DNA of 38,714 bases, from the NCBI GenBank assembly GCA_043803945.1, contig JAZDJN010000024.1, positions 1 to 38,714 on the forward strand, in the 5' to 3' direction. The stretch's first letter is position 1; every line of letters begins with the position of its first letter. The notes beneath the pieces are model-generated. The model saw only the letters and a list, made by a program, of their open reading frames with translations. It had not been told where the DNA came from and searched no databases. This document shows positions 17,317 through 26,706 of the stretch, one piece after another. The position numbers and the translations under genes were made by a program. The stretch is from a bacterium. Lineage in GTDB: Bacteria; Bacteroidota; Ignavibacteria; UBA10030.

Positions 17317-18129
17317 TTATTTCAGAAGTGTTGCCGGATCCAGATTCGGTGACTCAATATCCTTAAAATATTTTACTGTTCCGACCTTCAGCTCCAGTGT
17401 TGCTTCATCGTCGCATACGATAATTCCATGCGGATGGAGTTGGAGCGCACTGACTGTCCACATATGGTTCACACCGCTTTCAACCACATTGTTGAGTGCA
17501 CGCGCCTTCTTATATCCATTGATAATGATAAGGACTTCTTTCGAGTCGAGAACAGTTGCTACGCCAACGGTGAGCGCAGTTTTCGGTACTTTATTGATGT
17601 CGTGATCGAAGAATCGGGCATTGGCCAGGACAGTATCGTACGTCAGAGTTTTTACCCTTGTGCGTGAAGCAAGCGAGGAACCCGGTTCATTGAATGCAAT
17701 ATGTCCATCGGGACCGATACCTCCGAGGAAGAGAAATATGCCACCTGCTTTTCGTATGCTCTCTTCATATTGTTGGCATTCTTCCTCCAGGTCCTTTGCA
17801 TTTCCATTCAGGATATGGACATTCCCCTTTTGGATATCAATCTGCGAGAAAAAATTGTCCCACATAAATGCATGATAACTTTCCGGGTGATCTTCCGGGA
17901 TTGCAATGTATTCATCCATATTGAACGTGACGACATTTTTAAACGAGACTTGACCGGCTTTGTGCATAGCCACCAGTTCCTTGTACGTCCCAAGCGGAGA
18001 TGAACCCGTCGGTAATCCAAGGACAAATGGTTTTTCCGGCGATGGTTTGAAGTCCCTGATTTTTCGCACCACATAGGATGCTACCCATTTACTTACTAAC
18101 TCATAATTCGGTTGAATAATGACTCGCAT
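17317..18129 (-). CDS. nagB: Glucosamine-6-phosphate deaminase
   Basis: [67 protein letters not shown]. Confidence 0.98.
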
Positions 18130-18174
18130 TGTTGCTCCTTTATGGTTGATGGGAAAATAATACCGGTGTCAGAG

Positions 18175-20169
18175 TTACTCAGCACTCTGATGGATTGCTG
18201 CTAGAAATTCTTCTTTGGCCTGGAGTATCTTCTTCACCTCCTGTGCCATTTTCTGAACAACGCCGTTCGACTCCGCTGTCCCCCGGACACTCTCGAAATC
18301 CTTTCCTGCTTCCTCTTCGGTCCTATCGATGCCGTAACCGATGTGTGCAGTAGCACCATATTCTTTTTTCGAATCGTCGAGAATTATGGATTGTAACGAT
18401 GAGGCGCTCTTTTCCCATGAGAGAACCAACTCCTCGGCCTGCTGCTTCGTAAATGCCTCTAATGAAAGTCCATGTTCTTTCCGATACGTATCGTAGATGT
18501 AGTTCCATTCATCTTCCTGGTAGGTCTGGATCATGCTTTGCAGTGAATCAAGGAGTATTTCGTACGTCGAGATTGTACTATCCATAACCCCTTGTTCCAG
18601 GGCAAGAAGCCGTTCCCGAGGTACTATTAATCCGCTTATATCGGTCCATTCCTCTGAATACTTCAAGGGCGAAGCCGGCGCAAGGGCGGCAATGGCTCTC
18701 TGCCATGAGTTTTCCTTCTTCAACGATTCCATCAAACGTTCGGCAATTTTTCCATTGAGATACCTGGTGATCGCCTGCTCATAGACTTTGGCTCCTTTCT
18801 CTAAATGCAAGCGGCTGAGAAATCCACCACCACAGGGAATTGTGGATTTCTCCTTTGGAGCCGCATTGTTCAATTCAATAAGCTCATCGCGTCCGCGACA
18901 CATCTTTTCAACTGTGTAGGGTGTAAAGACATCAAAGATTATTAAATCGCGCTTATTCAACGTTTTCCGGTTATCTCTCTTCGGCCACTTTTCACCGTCA
19001 CGTACCAGACCAATTGTTCCGAGGTTCATTCCGGGAACAATCTTGCTTTTCCCCTCTTCCTCGAAGATATAGGAAAAGGGAAGGTTCGGCGTGCTGATAT
19101 TTGAATAATGCTTCCCGATCACCACACTGAATGCTCCAATGTGCGCTTCAAAGAGCAGATACGAAAATGAACCTGTTTTGCTCCCACGTTCCAGTACCCC
19201 TTGATGGACCGGTCCGAGCTTGTACATATGGTTACTTTGATTCGTTCCGCTACCGGCATTATAGAAAGAAAAGATGCCGGCGATTAACAAGGTGGATTTA
19301 TGATGAGTGACGGTATAGGGGCCGGCGAAGAGCGAGACTGCTTCTCCATGGAATGCTTCGCAGTTTGCAAAAAATAGGGAATTCTCTGCCGAGTACTGCT
19401 TCCCCATTTTAACACCCTGACCGATAAAGCATTTATCAACCAATGCGCCCGAGTCGATTGTTGCTCCTTCGGAGACGATAAAATGCCGTGCAATCACACC
19501 GTTGCCCATCTGCGTCGGGTGTTCCTTGCAACTGTTAACCGTGCCATTTTCAAGTTGCTTCACACCCACGATGGAAGCATATGGTCCGATACAGACATTG
19601 GTTAAGGGACCGCAATGAAGCACCGCAGCATGGTCGGCAATGATTCCTTTTCCCGGTTTGCTTCCATTAATTTTTATTTCGATGAGGGAGGCCAGCTTCG
19701 AAGAAAATTCAGGATTATGCTTCATCATACCTTGCATGTAGGCAATTTGCGCTGTTAAGTCATTCAGGATTCTGACTCCCCTCCCACCTCCCTCATTAAT
19801 TGTCTCAAGCTCAATCCCATTGCCGAACGAGCTGTCGCTCTCCGCCGTTAAGGAGGCAACATCCTGAATCACAACATTGTCACCAATGGAATAATTCGAA
19901 ATGACAGAGCCGATGTTGGCAATACGGACATGATCTCCTATAGTACAATTGTTTAGCGTTACAGAGTAAAGCCCACAGGGTAATTCAACATTGTCGACAA
20001 GACATGATCCTTCCTGGTTGCCAATCTGCACCGCTCCAATACAGTGGATATGATTGATGCGTTGTAGCATTGCAGTGTCAGCAATTGTCACGCTCTTCCA
20101 GTCAGTCGCTGTACATCCCTGTTGAACGAGTTGTGAAATTTGATTCTCTGTTAAATGATTGAATGGCAT
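18175..20169 (-). CDS. DUF4954 family protein (left-handed beta-helix-like)
   Basis: Family motifs FGNG..INEGGGR, AENSLFFANCE..GEA.SLFAGPYTVTHHKSTLLIAG, NAGSGTNQSNHMYKLGPVHQG, NLPFSY, KWPKRDNRK; hexapeptide-like IGD.V.I repeats. Confidence 0.88.
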   Translation of the reverse strand: MPFNHLTENQISQLVQQGCTATDWKSVTIADTAMLQRINHIHCIGAVQIGNQEGSCLVDNVELPCGLYSVTLNNCTIGDHVRIANIGSVISNYSIGDNVVIQDVASLTAESDSSFGNGIELETINEGGGRGVRILNDLTAQIAYMQGMMKHNPEFSSKLASLIEIKINGSKPGKGIIADHAAVLHCGPLTNVCIGPYASIVGVKQLENGTVNSCKEHPTQMGNGVIARHFIVSEGATIDSGALVDKCFIGQGVKMGKQYSAENSLFFANCEAFHGEAVSLFAGPYTVTHHKSTLLIAGIFSFYNAGSGTNQSNHMYKLGPVHQGVLERGSKTGSFSYLLFEAHIGAFSVVIGKHYSNISTPNLPFSYIFEEEGKSKIVPGMNLGTIGLVRDGEKWPKRDNRKTLNKRDLIIFDVFTPYTVEKMCRGRDELIELNNAAPKEKSTIPCGGGFLSRLHLEKGAKVYEQAITRYLNGKIAERLMESLKKENSWQRAIAALAPASPLKYSEEWTDISGLIVPRERLLALEQGVMDSTISTYEILLDSLQSMIQTYQEDEWNYIYDTYRKEHGLSLEAFTKQQAEELVLSWEKSASSLQSIILDDSKKEYGATAHIGYGIDRTEEEAGKDFESVRGTAESNGVVQKMAQEVKKILQAKEEFLAAIHQSAE

Positions 20170-25298: not shown

Positions 25299-25314
25299 TC
25301 AGGCATGCAATGCA

Positions 25315-26706
25315 TCAGAGCGATGCTCCTTTTTCAATGAGAATTTTCCGTAATTCGACACCATCCACTTTTCTGGGCGGTACTGAGGCACGAATGGAGA
25401 TGGCACTTGCCACAGCCGCTGCCTCACCCATGGCGCGACAATTCGTTTGGATACGAACTGAACTTTGCGCTTCAAATGATCCTGAAAAACACCTTCCTGC
25501 AACCAGAAGCTGGTCGACACTCAGCGGTATCAGGCACCGGTATGGGACTTCATGGTACTCTCCGTGCGGCAGTTTGACAAACTTTAAATGATCATCTTTT
25601 TTATCCCGATGGATATCGAGCGGGTAGTTATTTCTGCAAATCGCATCGGGAAATTTCTTTGCACCGAGAACATCATTAACCGTTAGAAAATACTCACCCT
25701 GGATCCTTCTCGATTCCCTTACCCCGACCATCGGCGCTGTGGTTATCAGGTAGGCTCTCTCAAGGCCGGGGAGATATCGCTGGCAAAACGATACGTACCG
25801 TTGTGTAATCTCCCTTCCCTTTATTTGAGCGGCCGTCAGGTGGAACGGATTGGTCCCGTCGATATCCTGACTGATGCGCGGGCAATTAAAGGCAAGCTCG
25901 CCCGGCCTGCCTGCCATGCTAAAGATCTGGAAATAGTTGCCGTCACTTTCCTTCAGTATGCCTTCGGCAATCGCCTCACGGAATAACGGTTCGAGCGTCC
26001 ATCCTTTACCCCACACCATTGCCGTGTGGATGAGTGGAACGTTGCTCCCCTGCGCACTTTCCAAAACGTCGGATCTGCCCAACGATGTAAGAAACTCTGC
26101 AAATCGGGATAGGTCGACATTGCCAAGATGAAATCTGACCGAGAATAGCTGATTCTTCTTCGTTTCTGGATCTCCGGATTCAAACGGGACTCCAGCCCGA
26201 AAGGCCACATCTGCATCCCCGGTGCAATCGATGATACGTTTCGCGAGAATTGCGCTGCGCCCGGCTTTGTTCGCTATGACAACACCGCAGAGATCGCTCT
26301 TTTCAAGTATGGCATCTTCGAAAAAAGTGTAATAGAGTAACTCCGTCCCGGCCTGGAGATTCATCCTCTCCAGCATCAGCTTGAGCATTTCAGGATTGAA
26401 CCACCCCTGATTGCCATCTTTCCATACACCGGACTCTCGTAATGCGATCATTCCGGTATTGATCTCCAGATCGATACCGCCGTTCAGGGGTGCTCCCGAT
26501 AACTGATTCGGCATCATTGGTGTAACCAATGCCCCGGTCTGTGTTCCTCCCAGAAAACCCTGCTGCTCGATAACAAGAGCGTTCATCTCCTCTCTTCCTG
26601 CAGCAATTCCTGCAACAGCCCCTGCAGTACCGCCACCAACAATAAGAATATCCACTTCACGAGTGGTGGGAATATTCTGTTCTTTAAGTTGTTTCAATGT
26701 GTGCAT
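25315..26706 (-). CDS. FAD-dependent oxidoreductase (PF12831-like), cytoplasmic
   Basis: DILIVGGGTAG (Rossmann), LGGTQT, IDCTGDADVA, VRESRRIQGEY, VPYRCLIP, LLVAGRCFS, AMGEAA. Confidence 0.92.
   Translation of the reverse strand: MHTLKQLKEQNIPTTREVDILIVGGGTAGAVAGIAAGREEMNALVIEQQGFLGGTQTGALVTPMMPNQLSGAPLNGGIDLEINTGMIALRESGVWKDGNQGWFNPEMLKLMLERMNLQAGTELLYYTFFEDAILEKSDLCGVVIANKAGRSAILAKRIIDCTGDADVAFRAGVPFESGDPETKKNQLFSVRFHLGNVDLSRFAEFLTSLGRSDVLESAQGSNVPLIHTAMVWGKGWTLEPLFREAIAEGILKESDGNYFQIFSMAGRPGELAFNCPRISQDIDGTNPFHLTAAQIKGREITQRYVSFCQRYLPGLERAYLITTAPMVGVRESRRIQGEYFLTVNDVLGAKKFPDAICRNNYPLDIHRDKKDDHLKFVKLPHGEYHEVPYRCLIPLSVDQLLVAGRCFSGSFEAQSSVRIQTNCRAMGEAAAVASAISIRASVPPRKVDGVELRKILIEKGASL

Follow-up and report, generated by a model that had tools for sequence, protein, structure and literature searches.

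The canonical lower pathway for sialic acid and N-acetylmannosamine (ManNAc) comprises the ROK kinase NanK, the ManNAc-6-phosphate 2-epimerase NanE, NagA and NagB, with a Bacteroides variant that uses an AGE-type epimerase and RokA. Phosphorolytic disaccharide operons, such as the chitobiose system of Vibrio, carry a GH94 phosphorylase and a sugar-1-phosphate mutase. A further group, the ATP-dependent enzymes of HyuA/HyuB type, includes N-methylhydantoinase, 5-oxoprolinase, caprolactamase and the acetone and acetophenone carboxylases. We know of no activity for DUF4855, PF12831 or the clade of HyuA-like ATPases considered here.

The window, a 38,714-nucleotide stretch of DNA from a member of the Ignavibacteria, carries six genes that had been predicted to form one amino-sugar catabolic pathway. 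Our best reading, which we hold at a probability of about 0.6, is that two modules were adjoined by a deletion and that the first serves the salvage of an amino-sugar glycoside by way of ManNAc. Module 1 consists of the FAD oxidoreductase, the IT-type permease, the HyuA-like ATPase and DUF4855, and module 2 of nagB and DUF4954. The locus is laid out as follows.

11376–14648, plus strand: GH38 alpha-mannosidase, convergent with the cluster (Pfam)
17257–17289, minus strand: terminator-like hairpin after nagB, 13-pair stem (consensus match only)
17317–18129, minus strand: nagB, glucosamine-6-phosphate deaminase, 270 aa (TIGR00502)
18175–20169, minus strand: DUF4954 + DUF6819 protein, 664 aa (Pfam)
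20241–20363, minus strand: remnant of a second nagB, 41 codons of its C-terminus, within the 294-bp gap (tblastn and nagB model)
20464–21573, minus strand: DUF4855 protein, unfused, 369-aa database form; longest ORF to 21654, 396 aa (Pfam)
21617–23794, minus strand: HyuA-like (hydantoinase/oxoprolinase A-type) ASKHA ATPase, 725 aa (Pfam)
23769–25298, minus strand: IT-superfamily-like anion permease, polytopic membrane protein, 509 aa (atlas features, predicted structure)
25315–26706, minus strand: cytoplasmic FAD-dependent oxidoreductase of family PF12831, 463 aa, with which module 1 begins (Pfam)
26753–29530, minus strand: 925-aa protein, distant GH42-like glycosidase candidate, signal-peptide-like N-terminus
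29578–38491, minus strand: outer-membrane uptake block including a TonB-dependent receptor

All six open reading frames lie on the minus strand where the original prediction placed them, and its description of the layout was borne out. The spacings are 45, 294, 16 and 46 bp, and the permease and ATPase genes overlap by 26 bp as longest ORFs or by 8 bp if the ATPase is taken in its 719-aa database form. An apparent ATPase/DUF4855 overlap disappears with the DUF4855 start at 21573. Inspection by eye of NagB, DUF4954, the ATPase, the flavoprotein and DUF4855 reveals nothing like a signal peptide at the N-terminus, in line with the original prediction, and neither nagA nor a GlcNAc kinase is present in the window. 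The hairpin after nagB is one of a set of terminator-like sites that are, overall, no more numerous in the region than chance would give. Pfam and NCBIfam scores also uphold the family assignments: nagB matches TIGR00502 with 419 bits over positions 1–259 (cut-off 236.9), DUF4954 scores 581 bits and DUF6819 123 bits, DUF4855 210 bits and the flavoprotein 342 bits, and the ATPase comprises the Hydant_A_N and Hydantoinase_A domains. In a profile search, residues ~170–280 of the DUF4954 protein matched the β-helix of eIF2B-epsilon (6.7e-5) and GlmU (3.2e-3), and we predict that its core is a left-handed β-helix.

Comparison across genomes indicates that the six genes are two separate conserved groups, not one unit by descent. 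The order of module 1 is kept in 16–17 of 21 related Bacteroidota/Ignavibacteriota loci, related genomes being non-independent samples; across the 21 loci, which include Kryptoniota, we counted the permease in 16, the ATPase in 17, the flavoprotein in 13 and a DUF4855-ROK fusion in 15. Linkage to nagB, which had been named as the test of the prediction, proved rare: nagB lay within 10 kb of DUF4855 in 2/57 loci and in one of 80 ATPase-anchored loci, a case that shares its contig with one of those two. The nagB gene of the window is the sole intact copy found in a search of the genome. In 4/4 same-family orthologues of the DUF4954 gene, a nagB stands directly upstream, and the pair sits on other contigs in relatives; within this bacterial family, nagB is usually accompanied by DUF4954.

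The gap before DUF4954 does measure 294 bp, but it is not empty. It holds all that is left of a second nagB, the final 41 codons: by tblastn, the remnant is 66% identical to residues 228–268 of the first nagB of a related locus, L007 (E = 1e-15), and positions 20271–20369 match the nagB model with 24 bits. The gene order in L007 is permease, ATPase, DUF4855-ROK fusion, acetyl-CoA synthetase-like gene, nagB, DUF4954, HMGL-like gene and a further nagB, then NanE and GH38. A deletion took out the ROK domain, the gene resembling an ADP-forming acetyl-CoA synthetase and the greater part of the first nagB, thereby bringing modules 1 and 2 together, and the remnant shows that their juxtaposition is secondary.

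We consider it unlikely that the six genes form one operon in which four enzymes make glucosamine-6-phosphate (GlcN-6-P) directly, bypassing the kinase, NagA and NanE. The co-orientation, the close spacing and the hairpin would suit such an operon, the genome has nagB without NagA, as do the complete same-family genomes G158 and G194 with nagB-DUF4954, and the GlmU-like β-helix of DUF4954 could act on GlcN phosphates. However, the scarcity of nagB near DUF4855 and the remnant in the gap speak against it, and relatives join the module to ROK and NanE, or to AGE, with NagA elsewhere. The direct conversion that had been claimed is not upheld: these partners point to ManNAc and then GlcNAc-6-phosphate (GlcNAc-6-P), with NagA required.

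These partners recur widely. NanE accompanies DUF4855 in 19/57 loci and a ROK kinase, mostly fused to it, in 21/57, neighbour counts that are lower bounds because many loci end at contig ends; NanE was also found in 21 of the 28 ATPase-anchored loci that extend 5 kb or more to each side. The NanE-bearing loci span Bacteroidota-group, Bacillota, Bipolaricaulota and Thermotogota records, with NanE fused to ROK in the last. Among the matches listed, 25 of 120 DUF4855 homologues carry a ROK domain. In L009, L138 and L160, DUF4855 stands unfused and an AGE-type 2-epimerase comes next. As in the ManNAc lower pathway, then, relatives of the module have either a ROK kinase with NanE or an epimerase of AGE type beside DUF4855, and one locus runs on to the end of that pathway: in Bipolaricaulota (L040), an ABC transporter, an FAD oxidoreductase, DUF4855, a SIS protein and a BadF-type kinase are followed in a row by NanE, a NagA-like amidohydrolase and nagB. 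NagA is present in 4/5 module-bearing relatives and nagB in 5/5. At the other extreme, module partners were found in 0/16 DUF4855 loci of Cyanobacteria, Sumerlaeota, Latescibacterota and UBP4/unclassified records. In L016 and L020, the DUF4855-ROK fusion is accompanied by an MFS transporter while the permease, the ATPase and the flavoprotein are all missing, so module 1 can come apart into two halves.

By structure prediction, DUF4855 models as a cytoplasmic, glycoside-hydrolase-like (β/α)8 barrel (AF2; pLDDT 92, pTM 0.92). Its top structural matches are the GH153 domain of PgaB (Z 15.1), GH5 enzymes and the GHL10 protein Cwp19 (Z 14.7), in a flat list (Z 13–15) that points to a glycosidase-like barrel and to no specificity. 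As in PgaB, GH5, Cwp19, GH18 and GH20, carboxylates follow strand 4 and lie on strand 7 of the predicted barrel; E208 and E291/E293, respectively, are invariant, distant paralogues included. Sequence identity to these GH-A-type and related glycosidases is 6–12%, and a profile search against PDB sequences gave no match.

The GH38 gene neighbours DUF4855 in 10/57 loci, and in 12/80 ATPase-anchored loci it lies within the operon in the same orientation; a ManNAc glycoside leaves this steady operon member without explanation. It would be explained by a route for the N-glycan core, in which GH38 trims alpha-mannoses and a β-mannosidase-like DUF4855 or a GH94 chitobiose phosphorylase acts on Man-β-1,4-GlcNAc or chitobiose, the ROK protein being a GlcNAc/mannose kinase and the mutase a phosphomannomutase. 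DUF4855 also resembles the β-mannan-active barrels of GH5, GH113 and GH164 besides GH18 and GH20, GH94 includes chitobiose phosphorylase, and PMC10434189 lists BT0442, a DUF4855 gene of B. thetaiotaomicron, with the genes for glycan utilisation. Yet such a route needs no C2 epimerase, while NanE/AGE is the most constant partner, and it leaves the anion-type permease, the ATPase and the flavoprotein without a reason; we regard it as rather unlikely.

A sister variant of the module lacks DUF4855. Across the 80 ATPase-anchored loci, DUF4855 occurs in eight, a GH94 phosphorylase in 15 and both in none; a phosphosugar mutase of the PGM/PMM family occurs in 20, with GH94 in 11 and with DUF4855 in none. 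Genomes with the GH94-type variant have DUF4855 anywhere in 0/4. The variant thus shares GH94 and a PGM/PMM-family mutase with phosphorolytic disaccharide operons, and differs from them in its additional NanE, flavoproteins, HyuA-like ATPase, GH38 and HAD-domain protein, whereas the lineage of the window has the DUF4855-ROK fusion in place of GH94 and mutase. The GH94 representative scores higher as cellobiose phosphorylase (438 bits) than as chitobiose phosphorylase (321 bits), so the sugar released as 1-phosphate could be glucose, not ManNAc.

The permease showed no Pfam family match even at E ≤ 10. It has numerous hydrophobic segments, and its atlas features score 0.94–0.96 to clusters of CitMHS, DctM, DcuC and GntP-like type, with structural TM values of 0.65–0.79. 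The predicted IT transporter thereby gains a lead, rather than membership of the superfamily. The permease gene is directly upstream of the ATPase in 6/6 genomes and in 46/60 metagenome loci, and the ATPase, which had been described as lone, is functionally its fixed partner. Like HyuA/HyuB enzymes, the ATPase has N-terminal and A-type domains, with a DVGGT phosphate motif near the N-terminus and PDB matches from 1e-27 to 1e-9, led by N-methylhydantoinase (1.3e-27) and 5-oxoprolinase (4.6e-24), although these solved relatives align over residues 15–347 only. Unlike them, it has no B-type subunit gene beside it in the window, its constant partner is a membrane permease, and it falls far below every NCBIfam equivalog cut-off of the type (94 bits against 1000). 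Its homologues (~718 aa) are 52–64% identical among the 120 matches listed. Lastly, the flavoprotein model (AF2, pLDDT 87.5) resembles two-domain flavoproteins of FixC, geranylgeranyl-reductase and halogenase type, again in a flat list (Z 16–21).

The permease-coupled ATPase and the PF12831 flavoprotein set the module apart from the sialic-acid pathway, as does the lack of NanA (none above cut-off in 5/5 module-bearing genomes); the sugar is apparently released by DUF4855 or the GH94 phosphorylase instead. A non-canonical sialic-acid-type route would turn these features to account: a nonulosonic acid or derivative would be imported, the ATPase and flavoprotein would modify it, and DUF4855 would replace the lyase and pass ManNAc to the fused NanK-like ROK and NanE. 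The kinase and epimerases, the likeness of the permease to carboxylate carriers, TRAP DctM types included, and a strong BNR_2 sialidase-like gene in the genome (285 bits) are consistent with it. However, DUF4855 is predicted to be a glycosidase-like barrel bearing a pair of glutamates rather than an aldolase, and its counterpart elsewhere is GH94 with a mutase, which fits a glycoside and not the substrate of a C–C lyase. A strong sialidase match was not found in four relatives either, and we judge this route very unlikely.

Upstream of module 1, the uptake block encodes two 239-aa β-barrel-like proteins, a PorV/PorQ-family protein, a 685-aa protein, a 475-aa protein and the TonB-dependent receptor; a T9SS C-terminal sorting signal scored only in the 475-aa protein. 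The block is also found beside the module in L013, L014, L017, L023, L139, L147, L149, L161, L162 and L172. The 925-aa protein has a weak Pfam GH42 match (E = 0.009), atlas features of 0.96–0.98 to clusters that are in part GH42, and orthologues of 66% identity that occupy this position in L010 and L011.

In our preferred reading, the receptor block, probably with the GH42-like protein, would deliver a small glycoside, probably anionic to judge from the permease type, for import by the IT-type permease. DUF4855 would split it to give an N-acetylhexosamine of manno configuration. The conserved partners, either a ROK kinase with NanE or a 2-epimerase of AGE type, suggest that this is ManNAc, converted in turn to GlcNAc-6-P, with NagA still needed. 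In relatives, the ROK domain fused to DUF4855 and NanE would carry out that conversion, while in other lineages the GH94 phosphorylase and phosphosugar mutase would replace hydrolase and kinase. The ATPase would most likely act as a kinase, either on the remaining half of the substrate or on the intact substrate, and the flavoprotein may oxidise or reduce that remaining half. The putative flux runs from ManNAc through GlcNAc-6-P and GlcN-6-P to NagB.

The genome of the window, rated 100% complete in 118 contigs, departs from this scheme. A genome-wide check for nagA and a kinase, as the original prediction had proposed, did not find nagA (best match 25 bits against a cut-off of 226; no tblastn match to relatives' NagA), and thus not the deacetylase expected to supply NagB, and located three ROK genes outside the window. 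NanE was not found either, and with both enzymes missing the locus may be partly decayed. That the module is a decaying remnant, its genes persisting by chance or in another role, is highly improbable in our view: the deletion scar and the loss of the ROK domain, NanE, NagA and one nagB are what it would leave, but the four module-1 ORFs are intact, 56–74% identical to orthologues with invariant residues kept, and unfused DUF4855 with an AGE epimerase is an apparently normal variant elsewhere. This genome has that combination, with an AGE homologue (47% identity) on contig C66, and here the sugar would have to pass this 2-epimerase and a stand-alone ROK kinase. Our literature searches found no paper describing the module 1 route. 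Module 1 is a widespread, unstudied gene set, and the proposal of an amino-sugar route with undescribed enzymes is supported, its relatives feeding the NagA/NagB end as in the Bipolaricaulota locus.

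The window is the entire contig C24 of a 5.54-Mb genome that is held in 118 contigs and rated 100% complete. The original prediction had joined six co-oriented genes into one amino-sugar pathway that leads to GlcN-6-P and ends in nagB. Exactly as described, six minus-strand ORFs occur at 17317-26706, and by eye the N-termini of the five soluble proteins have no signal-peptide-like stretch, as had been stated for the enzymes. The observation is confirmed, and its interpretation is partly supported. We treat the genes as two modules, with the flavoprotein, permease, HyuA-like ATPase and DUF4855 protein in module 1, and nagB and the DUF4954 gene in module 2.

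Minus-strand features of modules 1 and 2 and of the sequence upstream
Within 17317-26706, minus strand: DUF4954 + DUF6819 protein (Pfam)
Within 17317-26706, minus strand: DUF4855 protein (Pfam)
Within 17317-26706, minus strand: Hydant_A_N + Hydantoinase_A protein (Pfam), the HyuA-like ATPase
Within 17317-26706, minus strand: 509-aa membrane protein, the permease (no Pfam match at E <= 10)
Within 17317-26706, minus strand: PF12831 flavoprotein (Pfam)
Upstream of module 1, minus strand: 925-aa protein with a signal-peptide-like start and a faint GH42 likeness
Within 29578-38491, minus strand: two 239-aa proteins, beta-barrel-like
Within 29578-38491, minus strand: PorV/PorQ-family protein
Within 29578-38491, minus strand: 475-aa protein that scores on T9SS C-terminal sorting-domain models
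Within 29578-38491, minus strand: 685-aa protein whose only match is a weak one to PorZ (C-terminal part of the model)
Within 29578-38491, minus strand: TonB-dependent receptor with CarboxypepD_reg and Plug domains, not a SusC equivalog

The nagB product matches TIGR00502 over its full length (model positions 1-259), at 419 bits against an equivalog cut-off of 236.9. The TonB-dependent receptor reaches 69 bits on the SusC model TIGR04056, at the N-terminus only, against a cut-off of 368. There is no SusD family match in the window, and a PorV/PorQ-family protein is present instead; a SusC above the cut-off with an adjacent SusD, the mark of a SusC/SusD polysaccharide utilisation locus, does not occur in the window. 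To our knowledge, the placing of a PorV-like protein next to a TonB receptor is no recognised layout. The unusual outer-membrane uptake block at 29578-38491 also accompanies the module in loci L013, L014, L017 and L023. On the other strand, convergent with nagB, are a GH38 alpha-mannosidase gene and a CotH gene; the CotH-domain protein (14769-17123, plus strand) stands between GH38 and nagB and has both a T9SS sorting signal and a lamin-tail domain. In relatives, the secreted neighbours include GHL10, NAGPA phosphodiester glycosidase, DUF5009, DUF4623 and CotH proteins, a hint, though no proof, of cell-envelope or phosphoglycan polymers. T9SS cargo with GHL10, NAGPA, Golvesin_C and DUF4623 domains is found near the module in L008, L012, L024, L016, L020 and L035. 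Unrelated to the module, the large surface-type proteins at 585-11293 (minus strand) include an 892-aa protein whose caspase (Peptidase_C14) domain follows CARDB- and DUF11-like domains, a 769-aa fn3 protein whose T9SS tail is weak, and a 1721-aa protein with FG-GAP, Laminin_G and TIG domains. A promoter and terminator scan stayed at chance level, with 10 terminator-like sites against 9.4 expected and 12 promoter-like sites against 13.6, the latter from a model that lacks Bacteroidota-type promoters.

To place the genes in a wider context, we aligned 32 DUF4855 homologues and, with this alignment, retrieved 57 genomic loci with flanks of up to 10 kb; we mapped the window proteins onto these loci, and then clustered and annotated the neighbours. 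Among 21 Bacteroidota/Ignavibacteriota/Kryptoniota loci the order flavoprotein, permease, ATPase, DUF4855 recurs; 16 of them have the permease, 17 the ATPase and 13 the flavoprotein, counts that are lower bounds owing to contig ends. The proposed linkage to nagB is not conserved: within the fetched 10 kb of DUF4855, nagB occurs in only 2 of the 57 loci (L007 and L040) and DUF4954 in only one (L007). L007, the closest full-length relative locus, has the order permease, ATPase, DUF4855-ROK fusion, ADP-forming acetyl-CoA synthetase-like gene, nagB, DUF4954, HMGL-like gene, second nagB, followed on the opposite strand by NanE and GH38, and this arrangement is likely the ancestral layout. Its synthetase-like gene (L007:6119-8263; CoA_binding, Succ_CoA_lig and ATP-grasp_5 domains) and HMGL-like gene (L007:11312-12694) flank the nagB-DUF4954 pair. 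By tblastn, the former has no match in the window's genome, and the latter is absent from it, with matches of only 21-25% identity.

The window retains a trace of this layout. Within the 294-bp gap between DUF4855 and DUF4954, positions 20241-20363 encode a 41-residue nagB remnant with 66% identity to the C-terminus of the first nagB of L007 and 24 bits to the nagB model. The remnant is just upstream of DUF4954, the same position as in L007, and the DUF4855 protein of the window stops at the exact residue where the L007 protein runs on into ROK. Because the remnant and the DUF4855 end both match L007, we infer a deletion of the ROK domain, the synthetase-like gene and 227 nagB codons. The nagB-DUF4954 pair is independent of module 1. 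Among 200 sampled genomes of the phylum other than this one, nagB is directly upstream of DUF4954 in all four same-family orthologues; it is so in two further relatives as well, and in genome G004 the pair is on a different contig from the DUF4855 cluster. Outside the family, three DUF4954 orthologues lack a nagB within 1.5 kb. Of the genomes compared, G003 and G074 appear to be one and the same, the nagA coordinates being identical. Elsewhere in the window's genome, contig C102 starts (144-4179, locus L124) with an Amidohydro_3 gene, a 135-aa ORF, a 234-aa ORF and PrmC. L010 and L011 have the same Amidohydro_3-to-PrmC order on the far side of GH38 and an SSF symporter, and the ancestral neighbourhood of the cluster has therefore been split over contigs or rearranged in this genome.

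Two partners of DUF4855 recur: a ROK kinase, present in 21 of the 57 loci, and NanE, present in 19. The ROK domain is carried by 25 of 120 listed close DUF4855 homologues, and the 57 loci contain 15 DUF4855-ROK fusions with ROK at the C-terminus; three Planctomycetota DUF4855 ORFs of ~670 aa, left out of the 57-locus counts, are probably ROK fusions too, judging by length and source names. NanE (PF04131; representative, 218 bits) occurs in Bacteroidota-group, Bacillota, Bipolaricaulota and Thermotogota records, and is fused to ROK in Thermotogota. In L040 the order is ABC transporter, flavoprotein, DUF4855, SIS protein, BadF-type kinase, NanE, NagA-like amidohydrolase, nagB. Where DUF4855 is unfused, an AGE-type N-acylglucosamine 2-epimerase comes after it; these loci are L009, L138 and L160, the last two of which look like one population. 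Kinase-fused DUF4855 thus goes with the epimerase of a phosphorylated sugar, and unfused DUF4855 with a free-sugar epimerase. This contrast in gene content argues most strongly for the release by DUF4855 of a free N-acetylhexosamine in need of C2 epimerisation, which would be ManNAc. The idea that the HyuA-like ATPase substitutes for ROK in the window was rejected, since most relatives carry both. In Cyanobacteria, Sumerlaeota, Latescibacterota and UBP4/unclassified records, DUF4855 is without the module partners (0 of 16 loci). In two Thermotogota loci (L053:11062-12585 and L060:9385-10628), the gene after DUF4855 encodes a DUF4127 protein and is broken into two ORFs in L060; no function for DUF4127 was found in the searchable literature.

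The predicted structure of DUF4855 is consistent with such a role. The model is a (beta/alpha)8 barrel (pLDDT 92, pTM 0.92) whose top structural matches are glycosidase barrels, led by the GH153 domain of PgaB (Z 15.1, rmsd 4.0, 262 residues aligned) and including GH5 enzymes, the GHL10 protein Cwp19 (Z 14.7), GH42, GH18 and GH164. Scores barely fall along the list (Z 13-15 as far as rank 50), and Foldseek gave weak matches only, to generic TIM barrels, GH18, GH20 and others at TM ~0.4. In the model, residue E208 follows strand 4 (198-205), and E291/E293 lie on strand 7 (289-293). These residues are invariant in the 32 DUF4855 sequences and in two distant paralogues of 555-560 aa; D217, D218, H219 and K223 are specific to this subfamily. 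DUF4855 is thereby predicted to have the 4/7-type TIM-barrel fold and the acidic residues of a glycoside hydrolase. An exhaustive search returned 961 representatives at E <= 0.001, and the cytoplasmic subfamily is small, as only about four full-length representatives share at least 45% identity. A profile search of PDB sequences with DUF4855 gave no match.

The other proteins of module 1 occur in a second setting. By protein-atlas features (0.94-0.96), the permease resembles carriers of the CitMHS, DctM, DcuC and GntP types, and its predicted structure compares with the DctM and CitMHS clusters at TM 0.65-0.69, which makes it a candidate member of the IT (ion transporter) superfamily. The ATPase scores 91.8 bits on Hydant_A_N and 191 bits on Hydantoinase_A. 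No B-type (HyuB) domain was found in the 19 window proteins scanned, nor a HyuB subunit in related loci among the families scanned. The ATPase falls below the NCBIfam equivalog cut-offs for caprolactamase and acetophenone carboxylase (94.5 bits against 1000; 56.9 against 1250), and solved HyuA-type proteins match it only over residues 15-347. In the sample of 200 other genomes of the phylum, six have ATPase orthologues; the permease is directly upstream in all six, and DUF4855 is downstream in two. Three loci (L118-L120) have the order permease, ATPase, short PF12831-like protein, NanE, full PF12831 protein, PGM/PMM-family mutase. A fourth without DUF4855, L121, is too short to show this layout, and no DUF4855 was found anywhere in the four genomes.

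We extended this comparison with a metagenome scan anchored on the ATPase, which gave 80 loci whose ORFs were labelled by BLASTP to Pfam-annotated proteins; the commonest cluster left unlabelled proved to be GH94. The permease is directly upstream of the ATPase in 46 of the 60 loci having at least 1.6 kb upstream. The other 14 (among them L140-L143, L157, L170, L174 and L184) have a non-permease gene there, and in one recurrent layout, labelled from three cluster representatives (L141, L142 and L170), the ATPase comes after genes for a LacI-type regulator, a peptide-chain release factor and a DUF1385 protein. NanE is present in 28 of the 80 loci, and in 21 of 28 among those with at least 5 kb on both sides. 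The full sister operon comprises permease, ATPase, short flavoprotein, NanE, flavoprotein, mutase, HAD-domain protein, GH38 and GH94, and is divergent from the same block of receptor, PorV-like and sorting-signal proteins that takes up 29578-38491 in the window (L139, L147, L149, L161, L162, L172). Across the 80 loci, DUF4855 occurs in 8 and GH94 in 15, together in none, and the mutase (20 loci) accompanies GH94 in 11 and DUF4855 in none.

On gene content, the simplest reading is that DUF4855 with ROK and GH94 with PGM are alternative routes for splitting the same kind of glycoside. Either pair, hydrolase and kinase or phosphorylase and mutase, would bring one half of the glycoside to the 6-phosphate for NanE. 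Both variants share the ATPase and flavoprotein, and because the GH94 variant has no other candidate kinase, the ATPase may phosphorylate the other half of the substrate, which the flavoprotein would oxidise or reduce. The carboxylate-carrier-like permease suggests that this other half is acidic. The GH94 representative resembles cellobiose phosphorylase more closely than it does chitobiose phosphorylase, and ManNAc could therefore be the reducing-end sugar and not the released 1-phosphate. The flavoprotein matches PF12831 over its full length (342 bits, residues 19-456), with G24, G26 and G29 of the dinucleotide-binding motif invariant. Its model (pLDDT 87.5) resembles FixC, geranylgeranyl reductase, flavin halogenases and related two-domain flavoproteins in a flat list (Z 16-21) that gives no clue to the substrate, and a search of PDB sequences gave matches at the level of the Rossmann motif only.

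The lower steps are incomplete in the window's genome, which has one DUF4855, one intact nagB, GlmS, and three ROK genes that lie outside the window. Neither NanE nor a ROK-type kinase, the pair that marks a canonical Nan cluster, is in the window. By profile search and tblastn, NanE was not found in the window or the whole genome, nor was NagA found in the genome. An AGE-type epimerase on contig C66 has 47% identity to the L009 enzyme. With AGE present and NanE absent, the window fits the variant with unfused DUF4855. An alternative source of ManNAc, cleavage of sialic acid by the known enzyme, is rejected on the NanA lyase searches, since the best matches in five genomes, including this one, reach 142-152 bits against a cut-off of 382. 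The genome, which has neither a NanA above the cut-off nor a NanE, does carry a strong BNR_2 sialidase-like gene (285 bits) on contig C38 at 3570-4664 (L123).

Of five relative genomes that carry module 1, four have NagA and all have nagB; among same-family genomes, NagA was found in 2 of 5. NagA was not found in G158 or G194, despite their nagB-DUF4954 pairs. These two genomes and the window's own (G000) belong to one family and are rated 99-100% complete; in all three, nagB adjoins DUF4954 and GlmS is present. No enzyme for the step from GlcNAc-6-P to GlcN-6-P was identified in the window's genome, and flux to NagB there is putative. A 781-aa ORF on contig C104, the second nagB-like match, has a weak NagB-like stretch and no deacetylase domain, and does not account for the missing NagA. 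As a profile, DUF4954 matches eIF2B-epsilon (6.7e-5) and GlmU (3.2e-3) in their left-handed beta-helix; as a single sequence it found no match in PDB sequences.

The lower half of the route (ROK, NanE or AGE, NagA, NagB) is the known ManNAc/GlcNAc pathway. For the upper half, no description was found in the searchable literature outside subscription journals. In the parts of that literature available to us, the sole mention of DUF4855 was a table entry for BT0442, with no function found, and PF12831 returned only unrelated work; DUF4954 did likewise. Papers on DUF4127, DUF4434, DUF5009 and GHL10 include Cwp19 as a GHL10 lytic transglycosylase. A search for hydantoinase with N-acetylmannosamine found only an unrelated review, one for nanE with hydantoinase and oxidoreductase found nothing, and the term N-acetylmannosaminidase was not found. 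New here are the complementarity of DUF4855 and GH94, the contrast between ROK-fused DUF4855 with NanE and unfused DUF4855 with AGE, and the deletion scar.

Taken jointly, these data allow a tentative reading to which we give a probability of about one in four. DUF4855 would found a new glycoside hydrolase family of exo-N-acetylmannosaminidases, with certain GH94 proteins as phosphorolytic counterparts; the HyuA-like ATPase, coupled to the permease, would be a substrate-trapping kinase of a new kind, acting with the PF12831 flavoprotein on the acidic half of the glycoside; and, separately, DUF4954 would supply GlcN-6-P in G000, G158 and G194, which bear nagB and lack NagA. The wider reading of the module as a ManNAc route gives testable roles to DUF4855, PF12831 and the HyuA-like clade, for none of which we found a published function. 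It also raises the question of what feeds NagB in complete genomes without NagA, and whether DUF4954 takes part. By locus context the module occurs in Ignavibacteriota/Bacteroidota, Kryptoniota, Bacillota, Thermotogota and Bipolaricaulota, and the labels on ATPase homologue records extend this to Calditrichota, KSB1, Acidobacteriota and Elusimicrobiota. If the wider reading is true, the two variants would be a clear example of a hydrolase and kinase exchanged for a phosphorylase and mutase, and the module would be a route for recycling ManNAc-containing material, probably derived from glycans or from the cell envelopes of other microbes, across many environmental phyla.
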